DNA from: an uncultured Candidatus Saccharibacteria bacterium | GTDB lineage: Bacteria > Patescibacteriota > Minisyncoccia > Phycocordibacterales > WO2-35-19 | Assembly: GCA_964519145.1 (NCBI GenBank) | Contig: CAZFHL010000001.1 | Span: 682-64,681, forward strand | DNA length: 64,000 nucleotides | Direction of reading: 5' to 3' | In this document: in pieces, positions 36,198 through 48,659 of the stretch | Position numbering within the stretch: the first letter of the stretch is position 1 | How the letters are laid out: the number at the start of each line of letters is the position of its first letter | The notes under the pieces: generated by a model | Told to the model about the DNA's origin: nothing | Seen by the model: only the letters and a program-made list of their open reading frames with translations | Databases searched by the model: none | Translations under genes and position numbers: made by a program

Positions 36198-36228
36198 AAA
36201 TCCCCGGTTATAAAAACCGGGGATTTTA
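36198..36228. terminator. bidirectional Rho-independent terminator between convergent genes
   Basis: aaatccccggtt-ataaaa-accggggatttt with A and T tracts on both sides. Confidence 0.75.
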
Positions 36229-36231
36229 AAT

Positions 36232-37794
36232 TTACATTCTATATCGGACAAGTCCTCTGGCGACTCGCTCTCTAATTGTTTCAAAATTTTCCACAATCAA
36301 AGATTCGCCATTTCTAAATACAACTTCGAGCAAATTTTCAACTCTCTCTTCATATTCGGTCAATCTGTCTCGAGTGACATATTCACCATTCTCGTCTAGG
36401 AATAATCCAACCAAACCCTTGTGGCTCTTCTTCTTAGAATCAGTCACAGGATCTTTTTCAATTTCAACAGGGTGTCCGTCAATCTCTACATAGATAGCTT
36501 TGAGTGCAAATCCTAGCGTATCACGACTGTGATTTCGCAAGATTCCACCAACGCCAATTACTAGATTTGATGCGGCATAACCCATTTCCATAAGTCTCTT
36601 CAAGGTTCTTCCGTATCTGGCAAGATACATACCATCTCCATAAATCAAACCAACCTTTGGATTTAGCACCCTAAAACCTTTAGAGTTTATTGTAGAGCCG
36701 AACGTCTCATCAAGAAGCCTTATGGCCCCTTTCCATTCATTACTACCTTCTTCTGCGGTAGGATCTCCGCAAATAATATATTCTGGATTTCCAGAATCAG
36801 GACGAAAAACTACTTTTCCGTCTCGACTGAGTATCTCAGATTTCAAAGTATTCGCAAAGTCTGTGAGTACTATATAGACATTGTAAGTGTCGGAAACAAT
36901 ACTAACTATACCCTCTGGATACAATCTCAGCATATTGCGAAATCCTAAAAGTTCGTCTTCTCGTCCAAATGAACACATAACAGAGTGTTCAGAAGCTGGC
37001 ACAGAAGACATAATTTCTTTGGTCGGATCAGCGCCATACATCCTGATAGCATATTCTCTTGCTGGCACAGTATCACTTCCTTTGAAAGAAAGGAGGTGAG
37101 CTGTACCTGTTATGACAGCTTGCTCTTCGGTAGAACAACCACGATAACCAAAGTCATGAACCATATAGTCTTTGAGAAAGTACATATCTTCGTCAACTGT
37201 ATTTTCAAAATATTTGTCAACAAGACGACGATATTCAAAAGAACAGCTAGCTGTAGTGATGGCATCCCAAATCTTCAGGATAAGACTCTCAAAGAAACCA
37301 ACACACCAGTAAAATTCTGGTAGGGTATTTGTGATAGTCATTATCGCATTTTTGACTGGGACAATCTGGCCTTCTCTAACAGCTTTGATTTCAATTGGTA
37401 TCTTGCCTAATCGGCAAAGACGCATAATCTTTTCTTCAGATTCTTTTGCTGTGCCACCTGTTGCTTTAGCAAGACCAAGTATCGCTTTTTTATTTTTGAT
37501 AAATTCGCGACCCATTTCTTCTGTGAGTGTCCTGCCAAGATAGGTAGACAAGTAATGCTGTAGACCAAACCAAACAGTATATCCATAATTTTTGTCTGAA
37601 CGAGCCATGAGATACGAGACAACCTTTGTAACTCCAGGAGCATATTGTTCCATATGTCCCATTTTGTAGACATCTGTCGCTAACAATGGATTTGCAAATG
37701 TCGGGTAAGATCTCTTGATGGCTTCAATTAATTCGGCTTCACTTGTAAATCCAAGTTCCAATAAGGAACTGCTGATAGTGTTGTTGTTTGTCAT
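36232..37794 (-). CDS. nadV: nicotinamide phosphoribosyltransferase family protein (NAMPT/NadV-like; possibly a Namat-type enzyme)
   Basis: Colinear similarity to NAMPT. NPLLATDVYKMGHMEQYAPGVTKVVSY matches [27 protein letters not shown]. Other shared blocks: IPIEIKAVREGQIVP, HDFGYRG, FKGSDTV, SVPASEHS, RPDSGNP, YGDG. Confidence 0.85.
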   Translation of the reverse strand: MTNNNTISSSLLELGFTSEAELIEAIKRSYPTFANPLLATDVYKMGHMEQYAPGVTKVVSYLMARSDKNYGYTVWFGLQHYLSTYLGRTLTEEMGREFIKNKKAILGLAKATGGTAKESEEKIMRLCRLGKIPIEIKAVREGQIVPVKNAIMTITNTLPEFYWCVGFFESLILKIWDAITTASCSFEYRRLVDKYFENTVDEDMYFLKDYMVHDFGYRGCSTEEQAVITGTAHLLSFKGSDTVPAREYAIRMYGADPTKEIMSSVPASEHSVMCSFGREDELLGFRNMLRLYPEGIVSIVSDTYNVYIVLTDFANTLKSEILSRDGKVVFRPDSGNPEYIICGDPTAEEGSNEWKGAIRLLDETFGSTINSKGFRVLNPKVGLIYGDGMYLARYGRTLKRLMEMGYAASNLVIGVGGILRNHSRDTLGFALKAIYVEIDGHPVEIEKDPVTDSKKKSHKGLVGLFLDENGEYVTRDRLTEYEERVENLLEVVFRNGESLIVENFETIRERVARGLVRYRM

Positions 37795-37808
37795 TTGTTT
37801 CCTCTTTT

Positions 37809-38240
37809 CTACTCTGCGTCTTTCTCTATATGCAGAGATTTGGTTTCTGTGTGGTTTAGAGTTTCTTCCAATTGTTCATAAGAAGCAGATAATCCAGCTC
37901 TGTCATCTAAAAAGATGTTCGCATAGATTTTTCTAGTGCCTCTCTTTTTCCAAAATGGTGGATCTTCGTTTATTGCATCAAACGGTATCCCGTTTTCTAA
38001 AAGATAATTTTTTACAAAATCCAAATCTTCATTTGCAGTCCAGCAAATAAGGTAGCAACCATGGGTTTTTGCTTTTCTCAATAACTCGATGACTTTTTGA
38101 TAACTTCTTCCTTTTTTGTGAAAATCAAAGACGGTATCATCAAAGTCATAAGCTACTACTATTGATCCGTATGCTTCAAATTCGGCAACGAGCCTTTTTG
38201 TTGCATATGTGTTGTCTAAATATGGATCTTGTAAATTCAT
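37809..38240 (-). CDS. HAD-superfamily phosphatase (possible nucleotidase)
   Basis: Motif I VAYDFDDTVFDF (DxDxT). Small cap-less HAD. Sits between the NAMPT-like and Prs-like genes. Confidence 0.5.
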   Translation of the reverse strand: MNLQDPYLDNTYATKRLVAEFEAYGSIVVAYDFDDTVFDFHKKGRSYQKVIELLRKAKTHGCYLICWTANEDLDFVKNYLLENGIPFDAINEDPPFWKKRGTRKIYANIFLDDRAGLSASYEQLEETLNHTETKSLHIEKDAE

Positions 38241-39100
38241 ACAACCTCCGACATTTTTACTACAGATAGAAAATCATTTTCTTCGTGTGCCTTGAAACTA
38301 TCTGTTGTATAAACATGATCAATTCCATTTTCTCTCAAGACATTAAGGCCTCTAGAAAAAATTCCGTGTGATACTACTAGGATTATTTTCCCGCAATTCA
38401 TTGCTTTTAAAGCTTTAGCTAAATGAATAAATGTTGCTCCACCATCACAAATATCATCAATTATGTAGAGATCTTGACCTTCAAAATCGGTTTCAAGAAT
38501 CTTTATTTCATCTACCAATCCACCGATATCTCTATGTTTTAGACACTGCACAACCTTCCTAACTTTTTTATTACCCAATTGGTTTGATACTGTATAAACT
38601 CTCTTTGCTGCACCAGCATCTGGCGAAACTAAATTAGCTTCATTTTTATTTTCCAGAACCTTTTCAATAAATTTGGTGCTAGATACATTCTCTGATCTAT
38701 CAATAAGAGCAGAAGCTACAATCGAATGAATATCGAAGAATACGACTCTCAGATAATTTTGAGAATTTAGAATTCCAGCAAAGATCTTTAGTGAAAATCC
38801 TTCACCAATCCTGCATACTCTGTCTTGACGACCGTATGGTAGGAAGGGAATGAACAAGGAAATATTTTTGACCTTGAGGTTTCTTAGTGCATTTGTTGCA
38901 ATAAGGATTCTCATCAAATCATTTCCATTTTCAAACCGACAAGTTATCATCACTTCTTCTTCATCAATGGTTTGAAGCCTCTTGCAATCATCTTCATTGA
39001 GTCTGAAATTTGCCTCTATTCCGCTAGGGAAGGGAGTAGAAGCGTCAGTCATGCCTTCTCCAAATGGTAAGAAGTTTGGTGTCAGATTTAGGGTCAGCAT
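38237..39100 (-). CDS. prs: ribose-phosphate pyrophosphokinase (PRPP synthetase) homolog, divergent N-terminus; possibly Adps-like
   Basis: PYGRQDR, FFDIHS and DDICDGGAT PRPP/ribose-phosphate binding loops. The N-terminal 40 aa are atypical. Confidence 0.75.
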   Translation of the reverse strand: MLTLNLTPNFLPFGEGMTDASTPFPSGIEANFRLNEDDCKRLQTIDEEEVMITCRFENGNDLMRILIATNALRNLKVKNISLFIPFLPYGRQDRVCRIGEGFSLKIFAGILNSQNYLRVVFFDIHSIVASALIDRSENVSSTKFIEKVLENKNEANLVSPDAGAAKRVYTVSNQLGNKKVRKVVQCLKHRDIGGLVDEIKILETDFEGQDLYIIDDICDGGATFIHLAKALKAMNCGKIILVVSHGIFSRGLNVLRENGIDHVYTTDSFKAHEENDFLSVVKMSEVV

Positions 39101-39261
39101 TTTTCGGTCCTTTCAAAGAACTATATATTGTATTTAATACACTATATCTACAAATAGTGTATACTATACACAAAATAAGTCAAGTAAAAAATATTTTATT
39201 CAACACTAATGATAGTTTGTCAAGTTTATCAAAATAATAAATATAGTGATATAATCAAAAT

Positions 39262-39882
39262 ATGGATAAATTAAAATTTGCGATTATAGCCACAGATATT
39301 GTGTGTTTTAAAATAGATGACAAGAAACTTAAAATATTAGTAGGCGAGGTTTTAAATCCTCTTTATAAAGGTAAACTAGCTTTAATTGGAGGACTCATAA
39401 GGCCAGAAGAAACTGCTATAGATTCTATTGATAGAATTTTTAAAGATAAGGCAGGTATGTCAAATATTTATAAGGAACAGTTATATACATTTGACGCTCT
39501 AGACAGAGATCTTCGTGGTAGAGTTCTTTCTGTTGCGTATTTAGCTATTAGCGAGGGTATTAATCAATCAAAAGGTAGTATAAAAACAGAGTGGATAGAT
39601 ATAAAAAAGATACCAAATTTAGCTTATGATCATAATGAAATAATAAAAGTTGCTTTAGAGAGGTTGCAAAATCGTCTTTCTCATACAAATATCGGTAAAT
39701 ATTTTTTGCCAAAAGAGTTCACTTTATCTGATTTGCAAGAAGTTTATGAAATCATTTTTAATAGAGATTTTGATAAAAGAAATTTTAGAAAAAAGATATT
39801 GAATGACGGTTTGTTAAAGAGCACAAATAAATTTAAAAAAAATGGCAAAATGAGACCGGCGCTTATTTATAAATATAAATAA
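39262..39882 (+). CDS. NUDIX hydrolase
   Basis: Nudix box GGLIRPEETAIDSIDRIFKDKAG (GX5EX7REUXEEXGU pattern). 206 aa. Confidence 0.7.
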   Translation: MDKLKFAIIATDIVCFKIDDKKLKILVGEVLNPLYKGKLALIGGLIRPEETAIDSIDRIFKDKAGMSNIYKEQLYTFDALDRDLRGRVLSVAYLAISEGINQSKGSIKTEWIDIKKIPNLAYDHNEIIKVALERLQNRLSHTNIGKYFLPKEFTLSDLQEVYEIIFNRDFDKRNFRKKILNDGLLKSTNKFKKNGKMRPALIYKYK

Positions 39883-46999: not shown

Positions 47000-47143
47000 A
47001 TATAGTAGAAATTGGAAATAGTTTTTCAGGTGGTCATAGTTAAAAGTTACTTACAAATCAAAGAGTGATTCAAAGAAATTAAGTATTTTTTAGTTATGAC
47101 CACTACCAGAGGTGGAGGTCAAACAGAAAGGAGGCTGACGATG

Positions 47144-47770
47144 AATGACATCCTCAGCCAAGCTCTCGAGGGGTTCATCGGACCCCTTAGACAGCTCATG
47201 ATTAACCTGCTCGGCCCAAACGGGCCAGAGTGGGGAGAGGAACTGAAGAAGTTTCTCCGAAAGGAGCCGACATGGTCGGCTCCGAAAATCCTCCAATTTG
47301 TGTCAGAGGTGGTGGTCCCCGCCACCTCGCAGTTCGTTCGGAGGGAGAAGTTCGTCGTCGCCACCTCGGCCTCGGCCGAGGTGAAGATCAGCTGGATTGG
47401 AGGAAATTTCTCCAGCTGGTTCCTTGCCGGTGACGGCAAGGTCGAGGAGGTAGGTGGGGAGACCACCCTCCTCGCCCATCGGTTGACCGAGAGGTCAACC
47501 GATGGGCCGATCATCGCCGAGCTGGGTGGCGAGAAGGTGGCGGAGACCACCCTCGTCGAGATGTTCGCCCTGCTGAAAAAGCAGGGTCGGGGTCAGGAGG
47601 GTACCCTCCTGACCAACAGGTACGCGAATGTCTTCTACATTCGCGACCGTGCGAATGTTCTTCGCACAGTTGACTGCTACTGGCACGGCGTTGGCTGGGG
47701 TGTGGGTGCCTACGAGGTTTCCCGTCCGTACCCGTGGGGTGTGGGCTATCAGATCTTTTCCCGTAGGTAA
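47144..47770 (+). CDS. DGR target (variable) protein, GC-rich, C-terminal VR; fold unassigned
   Basis: SD gaaaggaggctgacgATG at 47144. The track ORF starts at 47096 without an SD. The C-terminal 35 aa are encoded by the VR. About 60% GC against about 30% for the genome. No signal peptide. Not a recognisable CLec RGGSW pattern. Confidence 0.6.
   Translation, partial: NDILSQALEGFIGPLRQLMINLLGPNGPEWGEELKKFLRKEPTWSAPKILQFVSEVVVPATSQFVRREKFVVATSASAEVKISWIGGNFSSWFLAGDGKVEEVGGETTLLAHRLTERSTDGPIIAELGGEKVAETTLVEMFALLKKQGRGQEGTLLTNRYANVFYIRDRANVLRTVDCYWHGVGWGVGAYEVSRPYPWGVGYQIFSRR
47661..47766 (+). repeat. DGR variable repeat (VR)
   Basis: 106 bp with 90 of 106 identical to the TR. 15 of 16 mismatches fall at TR adenines (VR positions 47672, 47678, 47684, 47691, 47699, 47700, 47705, 47706, 47711, 47729, 47738, 47739, 47747, 47764, 47766). 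One falls at a non-A position (47724 G vs T). Confidence 0.8.
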
Positions 47771-47852
47771 TTTGAGTCTTAGGTTCTGACCCTTTGACTC
47801 TTTGACCCCTTGATACTTTGCATTCGTGCACGGTCTCAGGGGGTCTTTTTTT
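47771..47852 (+). promoter_or_regulatory. GC-rich hairpin/terminator 3' of VR (putative DGR target-recognition element)
   Basis: gaccccttgatactttgcattcgtgcacggtctcagggggtc + T7. 6-bp GC stem with inner palindrome cgtgcacg. Preceded by a direct ctttgac x3 motif. Confidence 0.45.
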
Positions 47853-48115
47853 ATACTCCAAAAACACATATAATTATTTTGAAATTATGTGTTACAGAAA
47901 AGTTAAAATTTTAGTTTTTCTGTCATGGTTTTAAAATATTTATAATGAGAGTTGTGTTGGATAAATCTTATACAAGAGTGTTATAAATATTTTTCAAAAA
48001 AATTAAAAGTTGGTATATGAAACTAATGGACTTTTATGTCTAGGGTAAGATTCAATCTCTTATGATTTAAGGGGTGGTGGAATGGGTGGTTTTATATACG
48101 AAAAGGTTTGTTTTA

Positions 48116-48221
48116 TTCGCACAGTTAACTGCAACTGGAACGGCGATGGCTGGAATGTGAATGCCAACGAGGTTTCCCTTCCGAACCCGTGGAATGTGGG
48201 CAATCAGATCTTTTCCCGAAA
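48116..48221 (+). repeat. DGR template repeat (TR)
   Basis: Adenine-rich counterpart of the VR. AAC/AAT codons in TR correspond to D, Y, H, G and R codons in VR. Flanked by AT-rich sequence contiguous with avd and RT. Confidence 0.8.
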
Positions 48222-48224
48222 CTA

Positions 48225-48554
48225 TTATTTTTCTCCTGTATTTACAGGAGTTTTTTGTTTTAGATTTTCTTGAAGACCTTTTCTCCATCCACCTAACATT
48301 TTACCTATTTCATCTAAATCAAGGGAAACTTTTATATATTTTTCATTTGGTACAAGTTTGCTTTCCCATGCAAGTTGCATAAAGAATTTTAGATTATCTA
48401 GTTTTGATATTGTTTTAGATAAAAATAATATTTTTTGTTCAGATACTAGATAAACAGAAGCAAAAGTTAATTCTAAAACATCTAAGAAAGATTGTTCTAT
48501 TCTGTTTCCAATACCAAATCTTTCTATCTTTGGAAAATCTCTATGAATAATCAT
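48225..48554 (-). CDS. avd: Avd-like accessory variability determinant (four-helix-bundle, PF05635-like)
   Basis: 109-aa basic protein. C-terminal DEIGKMLGGWRKG matches the Bordetella phage bAvd motif EVGRILGSWIARVNRKG. Preceding L..L..F..LA helix also matches. Oriented opposite to TR and RT. Confidence 0.55.
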   Translation of the reverse strand: MIIHRDFPKIERFGIGNRIEQSFLDVLELTFASVYLVSEQKILFLSKTISKLDNLKFFMQLAWESKLVPNEKYIKVSLDLDEIGKMLGGWRKGLQENLKQKTPVNTGEK

Positions 48555-48659
48555 CCAGTTTTTGTAAACTTCTTTTTCTTTTGATAAAACTTTTGGTAAA
48601 GAGTTTGTCGGGGGGGGGTAAACTATTTGTCATATTTTATGTTCTAATTTTAAGTTATA

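Follow-up and report, generated by a model that had tools for sequence, protein, structure and literature searches.

We identified, in a 64,000-nucleotide stretch of contig CAZFHL010000001.1 from an uncultured Candidatus Saccharibacteria bacterium (the window, below), a cluster of genes for a homolog of phosphoribosyl pyrophosphate (PRPP) synthetase (the Prs-like protein), a small HAD phosphatase and a NAMPT-like protein, together with a divergently transcribed gene. Judged from sequence, the cluster is probably a chromosomal, NrtR-repressed operon that recycles NAD+ as a housekeeping function. It resembles NARP1, the phage pathway that pairs an ADP-ribose pyrophosphate (ADPR-PP) synthetase of the Prs family (Adps) with a NAMPT-family transferase (Namat). 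What the sequences show directly is the gene content, the family and clade to which each protein belongs, the diagnostic residues, the operators, the limits of the operon and the conservation of its neighbourhood. An open reading frame check of the window bore out the coordinates and strands of the three minus-strand genes and the divergent gene as first proposed by a reading of the DNA letters alone (the original prediction). Its family assignments (NAMPT, Prs homolog and DxDxT HAD) also held, with support from Pfam, NCBIfam, PHROGs and intact HAD motifs.

The Prs-like protein has the Pfam domains PF13793 and PF00156, and scores 233 bits against PHROG 619, 135 bits against TIGR01251 and 72 bits against E. 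coli Prs. It passes TIGR01251, a broad subfamily model with a cut-off of 113 bits, and fails all other Prs equivalog and subfamily models (e.g., NF002095, 118 vs 296 bits). The window protein and the Adps of Bas63 match essentially the same set of ~1,550 phage records. We placed it in a bootstrapped neighbour-joining tree with Bas63 and SPbetaL1 Adps and housekeeping Prs from the Osterman supplementary table, and ICP1 Adps from the ICP1 genome. All Namat-adjacent Prs homologs are split from the seven housekeeping Prs at 100% bootstrap, which is the outcome for this protein of the phylogenetic check that the original prediction had suggested. The window protein lies within a monophyletic bacterial clade (100%) that joins the verified Bas63 and ICP1 Adps (90%), with the verified SPbetaL1 Adps outside, so that enzymes of verified function lie on either side of the window protein in the tree.

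Structures of ICP1 Adps define the features that distinguish Adps from Prs (Liu 2026). The hallmarks are a remodelled PP loop (Cys215-Ser220 and the Phe221 lid), the catalytic Lys185 on a β-hairpin, and loss of α11-α12 (Liu 2026). In an alignment, the window protein has every discriminating state. Its PP loop reads DDICDGGATF vs DDMIDTGGTL in Prs (the general contrast being C-D-G-G-A-T-F vs I/V-D-T-G-G-T-L), and the ribose-5-phosphate loop of Prs (DxxDTGGT) is missing. Also present are the HS motif, a Gly-turn hairpin with the catalytic Lys (equivalent to Lys185) and the GExFSLK RF loop. The N-terminus, which had been described as atypical, is ~17 residues shorter than in Prs, and the C-terminal tail has 19 residues vs 40-52 in Prs, as expected from loss of α11-α12. 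The loop DD[IVL]CDGGxTF occurs in 110 of the 120 Prs-like homologs retrieved. A Namat homolog is located two genes downstream in the same operon, that is, within 10 genes. On these features, Adps activity of the Prs-like protein is likely.

The same genes might instead serve classical nicotinamide salvage, which we consider rather unlikely. The Prs paralog would then be a dedicated PRPP synthetase, and NadV/Nampt would make nicotinamide mononucleotide (NMN) from PRPP and nicotinamide. An NMN adenylyltransferase (NMNAT) or PncC/NadD/NadE encoded elsewhere would finish NAD+, and the HAD protein, with no part in the pathway, would dephosphorylate sugar phosphates or NMN. Operons of this kind were so annotated by Rodionov 2008 (PMC2330246), and the passed TIGR01251 cut-off agrees with that annotation. 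The failure of the Prs equivalog models, the missing DTGGT loop, and the full set of Adps-specific features with membership of the Adps clade argue against it, as does the verified SPbetaL1 Adps, which gives zero product with the substrates of the PRPP pathway. The original prediction had stated that no NMNAT is encoded here, and indeed no NMNAT-like gene and no second prs were found in the window by tblastn (E. coli queries for NadD, entered by hand, and for Prs, entered partly by hand) and a scan for HxGH motifs. An NMNAT gene may exist outside the window, and a nadD-like gene was identified near a related operon in Flavobacterium (L054).

The NAMPT-like protein (domains PF04095 and PF18127) passes NF006629 with 492 bits vs a cut-off of 405, which would also suit classical salvage. 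It scores 336 bits against the Namat of SPbetaL1 (9w5x), 256 against the Nampt of Xcc (Xanthomonas) and 236 against human Nampt. For the tree, the Nampt outgroups were four Prs-less, NARP2-type phage Nampts (one KVP40-like, one adjoining an NMNAT-like gene), the Xcc enzyme and human Nampt, the last as a sequence entered by hand. The bacterial Prs-linked clade and the phage Namats are separated from all of these PRPP-type Nampts at 98% bootstrap, a split that speaks against classical salvage and completes the suggested phylogenetic check. The bacterial clade has 95% support of its own. An ORF of L023 that had been picked wrongly was disregarded. An insert of ~13 residues after RPDSG (IICGDPxA...KG; IICGDPTAEEGSNEWKG in the window) is present in every member on the Namat side and in no PRPP-type Nampt, and was found in 118 of 120 NAMPT-like homologs. 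The catalytic residues of Namat (in SPbetaL1 numbering, Asp13, Tyr15, Phe189, Arg192, Asp215, Arg306, Asp308, Arg399 and Asp400) are all kept, as is the HDFGYRG motif with the catalytic His.

The divergent gene was first taken for a NUDIX hydrolase. However, its 206-aa product matches PF21906 (NrtR_WHD) at 77 bits, and its best relatives in the Protein Data Bank (PDB), AraR (5bs6, 120 bits) and the NrtR of S. oneidensis (3gz5, 68 bits), align over the full length. Its score against the NrtR equivalog model NF050029 is 116 bits, below the cut-off of 400. No match to PF00293 (NUDIX) was found in the Pfam search, and the Nudix box appears degenerate (G44-x5-E50-x7-R58-I-F-K-D-K), with the glutamates of REUxEE lost. 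The gene product is thus, by its predicted domains, an NrtR-family transcription repressor and not a NUDIX hydrolase.

Two predicted operators stand between the Prs-like gene and nrtR (Table 1), and both fit the published 21-bp NrtR consensus with its GT-N7-AC core. The core common to both, TGTATNNNATACA, is matched perfectly at only two places in the 64 kb, both of them in this intergenic region and 29 bp apart. Of 29 relatives, 23 have equivalent palindromes ahead of the Prs-like gene, often in tandem. The NrtR of S. oneidensis binds tandem sites upstream of prs-nadV, and ADP-ribose and phospho-ADP-ribose release it, as shown by electrophoretic mobility shift assay (Rodionov 2008, PMC2330246). 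Relief of DNA binding by ADP-ribose has been demonstrated for the S. oneidensis and Synechocystis orthologs alone (PMC2330246).

The HAD protein has the motifs D32-F-D-D-T36, T68 (WT), K104 and D112-D113, which are invariant in 54 sequences. The basic DFHKKGR loop is also invariant in this family, and an N-terminal extension or helix is conserved. An AlphaFold2 (AF2) model (pLDDT 86.6) has a capless HAD fold, and its best structural matches are HAD structures, the closest being BT0820, 1xpj, a phage D-arabinose-1,5-diphosphate phosphatase and the 3'-phosphatase domains of T4 Pnkp and Pnkp1. Its score against the BT0820 model is 36.6 bits (cut-off 165). There was no match to Macro in the Pfam and NCBIfam searches or in the comparison of the AF2 structure. 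The start codon of the HAD gene overlaps the stop codon of the Prs-like gene by 4 bp, and the two are therefore probably translationally coupled.

Close bacterial homologs of the HAD gene were inside NrtR-PrsL-...-NAMPT operons in all ten cases examined (the window, L004, L023, L029, L030, L032 and L052-L055). The hosts include C. hutchinsonii, P. frigiditerrae, Flavobacterium PL002, a 677-kb metagenomic contig, a contig of the Candidate Phyla Radiation (CPR; L004), two Bdellovibrionales metagenome-assembled genomes (MAGs), L029 and a Lloydbacteria MAG. Strong phage homologs adjoin Prs-like or NAMPT-like genes in four different orders: PrsL-NAMPT-HAD in Bastillevirinae, PncA-PrsL-NAMPT-HAD in Phass-1, NAMPT-HAD-PrsL in crAss-like phages and HAD-PrsL in Lak-B8. 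The adjacency is kept despite the shuffled gene order, which argues for functional coupling. On this conservation of neighbourhood, the predicted phosphatase is a dedicated accessory gene of the NARP1-type operon; a phosphorylated form of ADP-ribose is a tentative suggestion for its substrate. Neither a HAD partner nor NrtR is mentioned in the searchable NARP1 papers, which describe the Macro phosphatase Adpp alone.

Phage records label the NARP1-linked HAD protein (PHROG 1238; NC_024211 gp65) as phosphoheptose isomerase, polynucleotide kinase or hydrolase, and these look like propagated mis-annotations. In the code-15 gut phage Phass-1 (L001, 902-4417), a nicotinamidase gene directly precedes the Prs-like, NAMPT-like and HAD genes. 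The pairing is puzzling because such an enzyme would use up a substrate of the pathway, nicotinamide. Weak HAD homologs (~50 bits) from Listeria and Porphyromonas phages were excluded from the NARP1-linked set, being of another subfamily that occurs in RNA-repair contexts. An example, in Listeria phage P100 (L051, 2977-3354; 50 bits), is located amid genes for RNA ligase, tRNA-splicing ligase and phosphoesterase; it shares the capless HAD fold and represents a distinct subfamily associated with RNA repair.

A scan of GTDB (one genome per species, with the NAMPT-like protein as query) yielded 37 loci. The closest are in MAGs of Candidatus Saccharibacteria and Paceibacterota (62-71% identity), followed by Pedobacter and Mucilaginibacter (~65%). 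In 30 of the 37 loci the NAMPT-like gene is directly preceded by the Prs-like gene; three more loci are cut by contig ends, and 24 of the 37 include an NrtR gene. The four genes of the window recur in the same order in Cytophaga hutchinsonii (NrtR-PrsL-HAD-NAMPT). The operons of relatives sit in unrelated chromosomal contexts. On these patterns, the operon therefore appears to be chromosomal and horizontally mobile over evolutionary time, and not a prophage.

Sister operons encode additional enzymes, including an ADP-ribosylglycohydrolase (ARH; PF03747, in L006 and L054), a Macro domain protein together with the HAD phosphatase (L055), and a deoxyribosyltransferase-like protein (Nuc_deoxyri_tr2, PF15891) in the Flavobacterium operon (L054). 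All of these enzymes release or process derivatives of ADP-ribose, which supports ADP-ribose as the input of the pathway. The ARH and Macro enzymes would generate ADP-ribose, not the ribose-5-phosphate that classical salvage would draw on.

We also considered that the operon might remove reactive free ADP-ribose (detoxification or turnover), with the HAD and Prs-like proteins yielding other products. An ADP-ribose-sensing regulator and a dedicated phosphatase would fit such a role, and Iyer/Aravind described NrtR- or WYL-gated operons for ADP-ribose processing that contain phosphatases. However, the most conserved gene of the operon (65-73% identity across phyla) is that for the NAMPT-like protein, a full-length, catalytically intact nicotinamide transferase. 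Its strict linkage to the Prs-like gene is sensible only if an activated ribosyl donor is consumed with nicotinamide. This role is very improbable.

Two further observations concern the related loci. A conserved same-strand triad downstream of the NAMPT-like gene was found in L009, L010, L022, L027, L028, L029, L030 and L032 (Pedobacter, Mucilaginibacter, Saccharibacteria, Lloydbacteria and Bdellovibrionales). It encodes a kinase-like protein (weak Pkinase/MkoA), a protein with no Pfam match and a DVTGSM motif (possibly vWA-like), and an adenylosuccinate-synthetase-like protein (PF00709, 193 bits). The triad matches no PADLOC system, and it was rejected as a part of the locus since it is absent from the window. 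A frameshift or pseudogene is suggested in a Cyanobacteriota MAG (L008, 6137-6921), where tblastn recovers the Prs-like gene that precedes the NAMPT-like gene as two pieces.

In the mechanism that we propose for the NARP1-type operon, all enzyme activities, the ligand to which the regulator responds and the substrate of the HAD phosphatase are predictions. NrtR would bind the two tandem operators, which overlap the operon promoter, and repress transcription. Cleavage of NAD(P)+ would yield free ADP-ribose or 2'-phospho-ADP-ribose, releasing NrtR so that the operon is transcribed. The Adps-type Prs homolog would transfer pyrophosphate from ATP to the 1'' hydroxyl of ADP-ribose, producing ADPR-PP and AMP, and the Namat-like transferase would convert ADPR-PP and nicotinamide to NAD+ and pyrophosphate, making NMNAT unnecessary. 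The HAD phosphatase would most likely turn phosphorylated ADP-ribose species (candidates are ADP-ribose-1''-phosphate, 2'-phospho-ADP-ribose from NADP+ and a ring-opened ADP-ribose cyclic phosphate) into usable ADP-ribose. This role would be analogous, not homologous, to that of the Macro-domain phosphatase Adpp of NARP1-AP. The cluster had also been put forward as a possible main route to NAD+. NARP1 recycles ADP-ribose that is itself derived from NAD+, and cannot be the main route unless ADP-ribose is imported.

Several observations weigh against a NARP1-type operon. Namats share the clamp signature GS-X-phi-X-phi-X-phi-TRD, i.e., GS-[FY]-T-Y-Q-[Y]-N-TRD (Lan 2026), and the window clamp GVGGILRNHSRD (GVGG-I-LRNH-SRD) fails it. 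The window clamp has Gly-Gly-Ile vs Gly-Ser-Phe/Tyr in Namat, is one residue shorter, and is without the aromatic pair Phe392/Tyr396. Its start (GVGG) resembles the GxGG of Nampt. In Namat, double mutation of the clamp lowers activity with ADPR-PP by as much as 16-fold and spares that with PRPP (Lan 2026). The clamp, and the PRPP activity that Namat-family enzymes keep in vitro (Lan 2026), are points in favor of classical salvage. In the Prs-like protein, the adenine contact of ICP1 Adps, Phe92, is a Cys, at a position that also varies in the verified Bas63 and SPbetaL1 Adps. Induction of NrtR by ADP-ribose would suit classical salvage equally well, with ADP-ribose merely signalling NAD consumption. 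The bacterial NARP1 with assay data, from Paenibacillus foliorum, is of the SPbetaL1-like clade, separate from the NrtR-linked clade. In sister operon L055 the HAD and Macro genes occur together, so that the substrates of their products probably differ. The idea that HAD simply replaces Adpp was rejected on this ground, and the HAD role is a predicted one. Finally, the trees are neighbour-joining trees with limited outgroups, from which the NrtR-linked paralogs of Acinetobacter and Shewanella were left out.

The clamp of the window protein is near-invariant across phyla (110 of 120 homologs). Its single variable aromatic position is H, Y, W or F in relatives vs V, L or K in Nampt, and this aromatic (His in the window) is at motif position 7 or 8, depending on where the gap is placed. 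We dropped an assignment of this His as the direct equivalent of Namat Tyr396, as a larger alignment puts it one position later. Deeper bacterial branches have an intermediate clamp, GG[IL]LLQxH-NRD. The SCL loop of Namat supplies a stacking residue (Arg, Lys or Tyr) from its third position. In the window loop, ARSDKNY, Lys aligns with Arg40 of SPbetaL1 (compare RSDKWF in Bas63); the loop is shorter, and Xcc Nampt shares the downstream Tyr. As judged from the alignments, the NAMPT-like protein is a third clamp type that falls outside Namat in the strict sense, and by its phylogenetic placement it is on the Namat side and partnered with Adps. Its use of ADPR-PP is reasonably probable. The original prediction had called the gene pairing exactly that of NARP1. 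The Adps clade and the Namat grouping uphold the NARP1-type reading against the phylogenetic part of the refuting condition in that prediction, and "exactly" is too strong given the failed clamp signature. An enzyme deposited as a nicotinamide phosphoribosyltransferase (PDB 9ke8/9keo) groups with the Namat of SPbetaL1 and shares the Namat insert, and its clamp is partly different, GVGAQTYQRNTRD.

A wider proposal, which we put forward as doubtful, joins two parts. HAD would be a third NARP1 extension that feeds a phosphorylated breakdown product of NAD(P)+ into the pathway, and the NrtR-linked clade would carry out ADPR-PP-dependent NAD+ synthesis as a housekeeping function. The first part would span Bacteroidota, CPR, Bdellovibrionota, Bastillevirinae, crAss-like and Lak phages. 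The candidates for that breakdown product would be 2'-phospho-ADP-ribose from NADP+, ADP-ribose-1''-phosphate from RES-type phosphorolysis and ring-opened, dead-end ADP-ribose cyclic phosphate. In the second part, the NrtR-gated bacterial clade would have its own single-aromatic clamp, GGI-LRxH, and in CPR episymbionts such synthesis might even yield a net gain of NAD+ from scavenged ADP-ribose.

The features of the locus are listed in Table 1. The terminator-like hairpin is directly 3' of the stop codon of the NAMPT-like gene and marks the end of the operon, and the divergent intergenic region between the Prs-like gene and nrtR is 161 bp. An Rfam scan of the window identified two tRNAs only (at 474 and 11728), hence no riboswitch on the operon.

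Table 1. Features of the predicted NrtR-regulated NARP1-type locus, in window coordinates.
Feature	Coordinates	Strand	Remarks
Intrinsic-terminator-like hairpin	36198..36226	-	12-bp stem with 6 G-C pairs, T-rich tail
NAMPT/Namat-family transferase	36232..37794	-	520 aa; core intact, insert IICGDPTAEEGSNEWKG, clamp variant GVGGILRNHSRD
Small capless HAD phosphatase	37809..38240	-	143 aa; start overlaps stop of Prs-like gene by 4 bp
Adps-type Prs homolog, predicted ADP-ribose pyrophosphokinase	38237..39100	-	287 aa; N- and C-termini truncated
Predicted NrtR operator 1	39125..39145		21-bp palindrome ATATTGTATTTAATACACTAT; GT-N7-AC core, 9/10 arm pairs complementary
Predicted NrtR operator 2	39154..39174		21-bp palindrome containing GTGTATACTATACAC; perfect 15-bp core; overlaps -10 hexamer of operon promoter
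Sigma-70-like promoter candidate, Prs-like-HAD-NAMPT-like operon	39156..39183	-	TTGACT-16-TACACT; consensus match only
Sigma-70-like promoter candidate, nrtR	39226..39255	+	TTATCA-18-TATAAT, extended TG; consensus match only
NrtR-family regulator	39262..39882	+	206 aa; degenerate Nudix-like sensor and C-terminal winged helix

Core genes are present on both sides of the cluster: rpoB, rpoC, dnaG, rpoD, mscL and a cyclophilin (PPIase) on one flank, and genes for an HI0933 flavoprotein, a DEAD helicase and an ABC transporter on the other. This context bears on the possibility, raised in the original prediction, of a counter-defence or prophage-derived module. The cluster would then be a recently acquired phage NARP1 module, carried as cargo of a prophage or mobile element and guarding the element or the cell from NAD+-depleting abortive infection. 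The Prs-like protein nests among phage Adps, all three enzymes have strong PHROG matches, the 65-73% identity of the NAMPT-like protein across phyla suggests horizontal transfer, and a diversity-generating retroelement (DGR) is located 7 kb away. The GC content of the NAMPT-like gene (0.396) is the second-highest among window genes >600 nt (mean 0.319, sd 0.057). However, its third-position GC (GC3) of 0.319, vs 0.214 for the window, is merely about 1 sd above the mean. Judged from these values, the GC and the identity to other phyla are compatible with horizontal acquisition and with strong constraint alike. No integrase, phage structural gene or adjacent tRNA was found around the cluster, and PADLOC gave zero matches at this locus. 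With the core-gene flanks, these results led us to reject a prophage or defence-island origin. The bacterial clade is monophyletic (95-100%) and has a dedicated NrtR and operators that are missing from phage operons. In addition, NARP1 is over-represented in non-mobile parts of chromosomes, and 469 occurrences were counted in Acinetobacter (AntiDefenseFinder survey 2024). An anti-defence cargo is thus scarcely credible here.

The DGR (47096-49655) includes an orphan 224-aa gene (47096-47770) with 58.8% GC in a genome of ~31% GC and no Pfam match. The 3' end of this gene (47658-47763) is repeated at 48113-48218 with 86% identity. The two copies form a template repeat/variable repeat pair, and at 14 of the 15 mismatched positions the second copy has an adenine. 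A reverse transcriptase gene (PF00078, 48660-49655) follows the repeat. In the related CPR contig L004, RVT_1 and bAvd also adjoin the NARP1-like operon.

If the favored reading of the cluster as a NARP1-type NAD+ recycling operon is correct, it links two literatures and answers a puzzle that has stood since 2008, that of the second, NrtR-regulated prs with nadV. The prs would be an ADP-ribose pyrophosphokinase, and control by an ADP-ribose-sensing repressor would be ordinary substrate induction of a two-step rebuilding of NAD+. The HAD phosphatase would be a new accessory enzyme for the phage pathway against NAD+-depleting immunity. Such a role suggests that bacteria or NADases make further phosphorylated ADP-ribose that needs recovery. 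CPR bacteria, with their minimal metabolism, would be investing in cheap cofactor recycling, at one ATP per NAD+. The variant clamp is a natural test of the residues that set selectivity for ADPR-PP vs PRPP.

Among known systems, the long-described nrtR-prs-nadV operon (PMC2330246), which went unrecognised in the original prediction, shares with the window an NrtR gene beside a second prs paralog and nadV, and tandem 21-bp GT-N7-AC operators. One of the original genomes, that of Cytophaga hutchinsonii, matches the four-gene set of the window. The 2008 paper reads prs as a PRPP synthetase, its purpose as a second paralog "yet to be elucidated" (Rodionov 2008, PMC2330246), and does not mention the small HAD gene. 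The window differs from that operon type in having a divergent, not co-directional, nrtR and a CPR-like host.

Phage NARP1 (Adps and Namat; Osterman 2024, Liu 2026, Lan 2026) shares with the window a Prs homolog of the Adps clade with all signatures, a transferase of the Namat-side superclade with the insert and the conserved core, and the proximity of the two genes. The window cluster differs in that it is chromosomal, has a dedicated repressor and no evident anti-defence context, and has GVGGILRNHSRD in place of the Namat clamp aromatics (motif positions 3 and 7). NARP1-AP (Adps-Adpp-Namat; Osterman 2026 preprint) is similar in its three genes, with a phosphatase between Adps and Namat, and in its proposed logic of converting phosphorylated ADP-ribose to ADP-ribose, although the phosphatase is a capless HAD protein in the window and has a Macro/Poa1p fold (Adpp) in NARP1-AP. 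The window HAD is distinguished from BT0820-type and T4 Pnkp-type capless HADs by the DFHKKGR loop, the N-terminal helix and the NARP1-type operon context.

Chromosomal bacterial NARP1 (AntiDefenseFinder 2024), of which that of P. foliorum is biochemically active (Lan 2026), has the same non-mobile location and presumed housekeeping role. The P. foliorum pair is 54-72% identical to that of SPbetaL1 and has the canonical clamp, whereas the NrtR-linked clade of the window is a separate branch. ADP-ribose-regulated transcription was pointed to in the Osterman discussion. The operon type (2008), the pathway (2024) and chromosomal bacterial NARP1 are already known, and novelty is modest because the last had been reported. 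What appears to be new is the residue-level identification, by alignment, of the NrtR-regulated prs as Adps-type, the putative distinct and conserved clamp variant of its partner enzyme, the predicted dedicated HAD accessory gene common to several phage lineages, and the occurrence of the whole set in a CPR-like genome.

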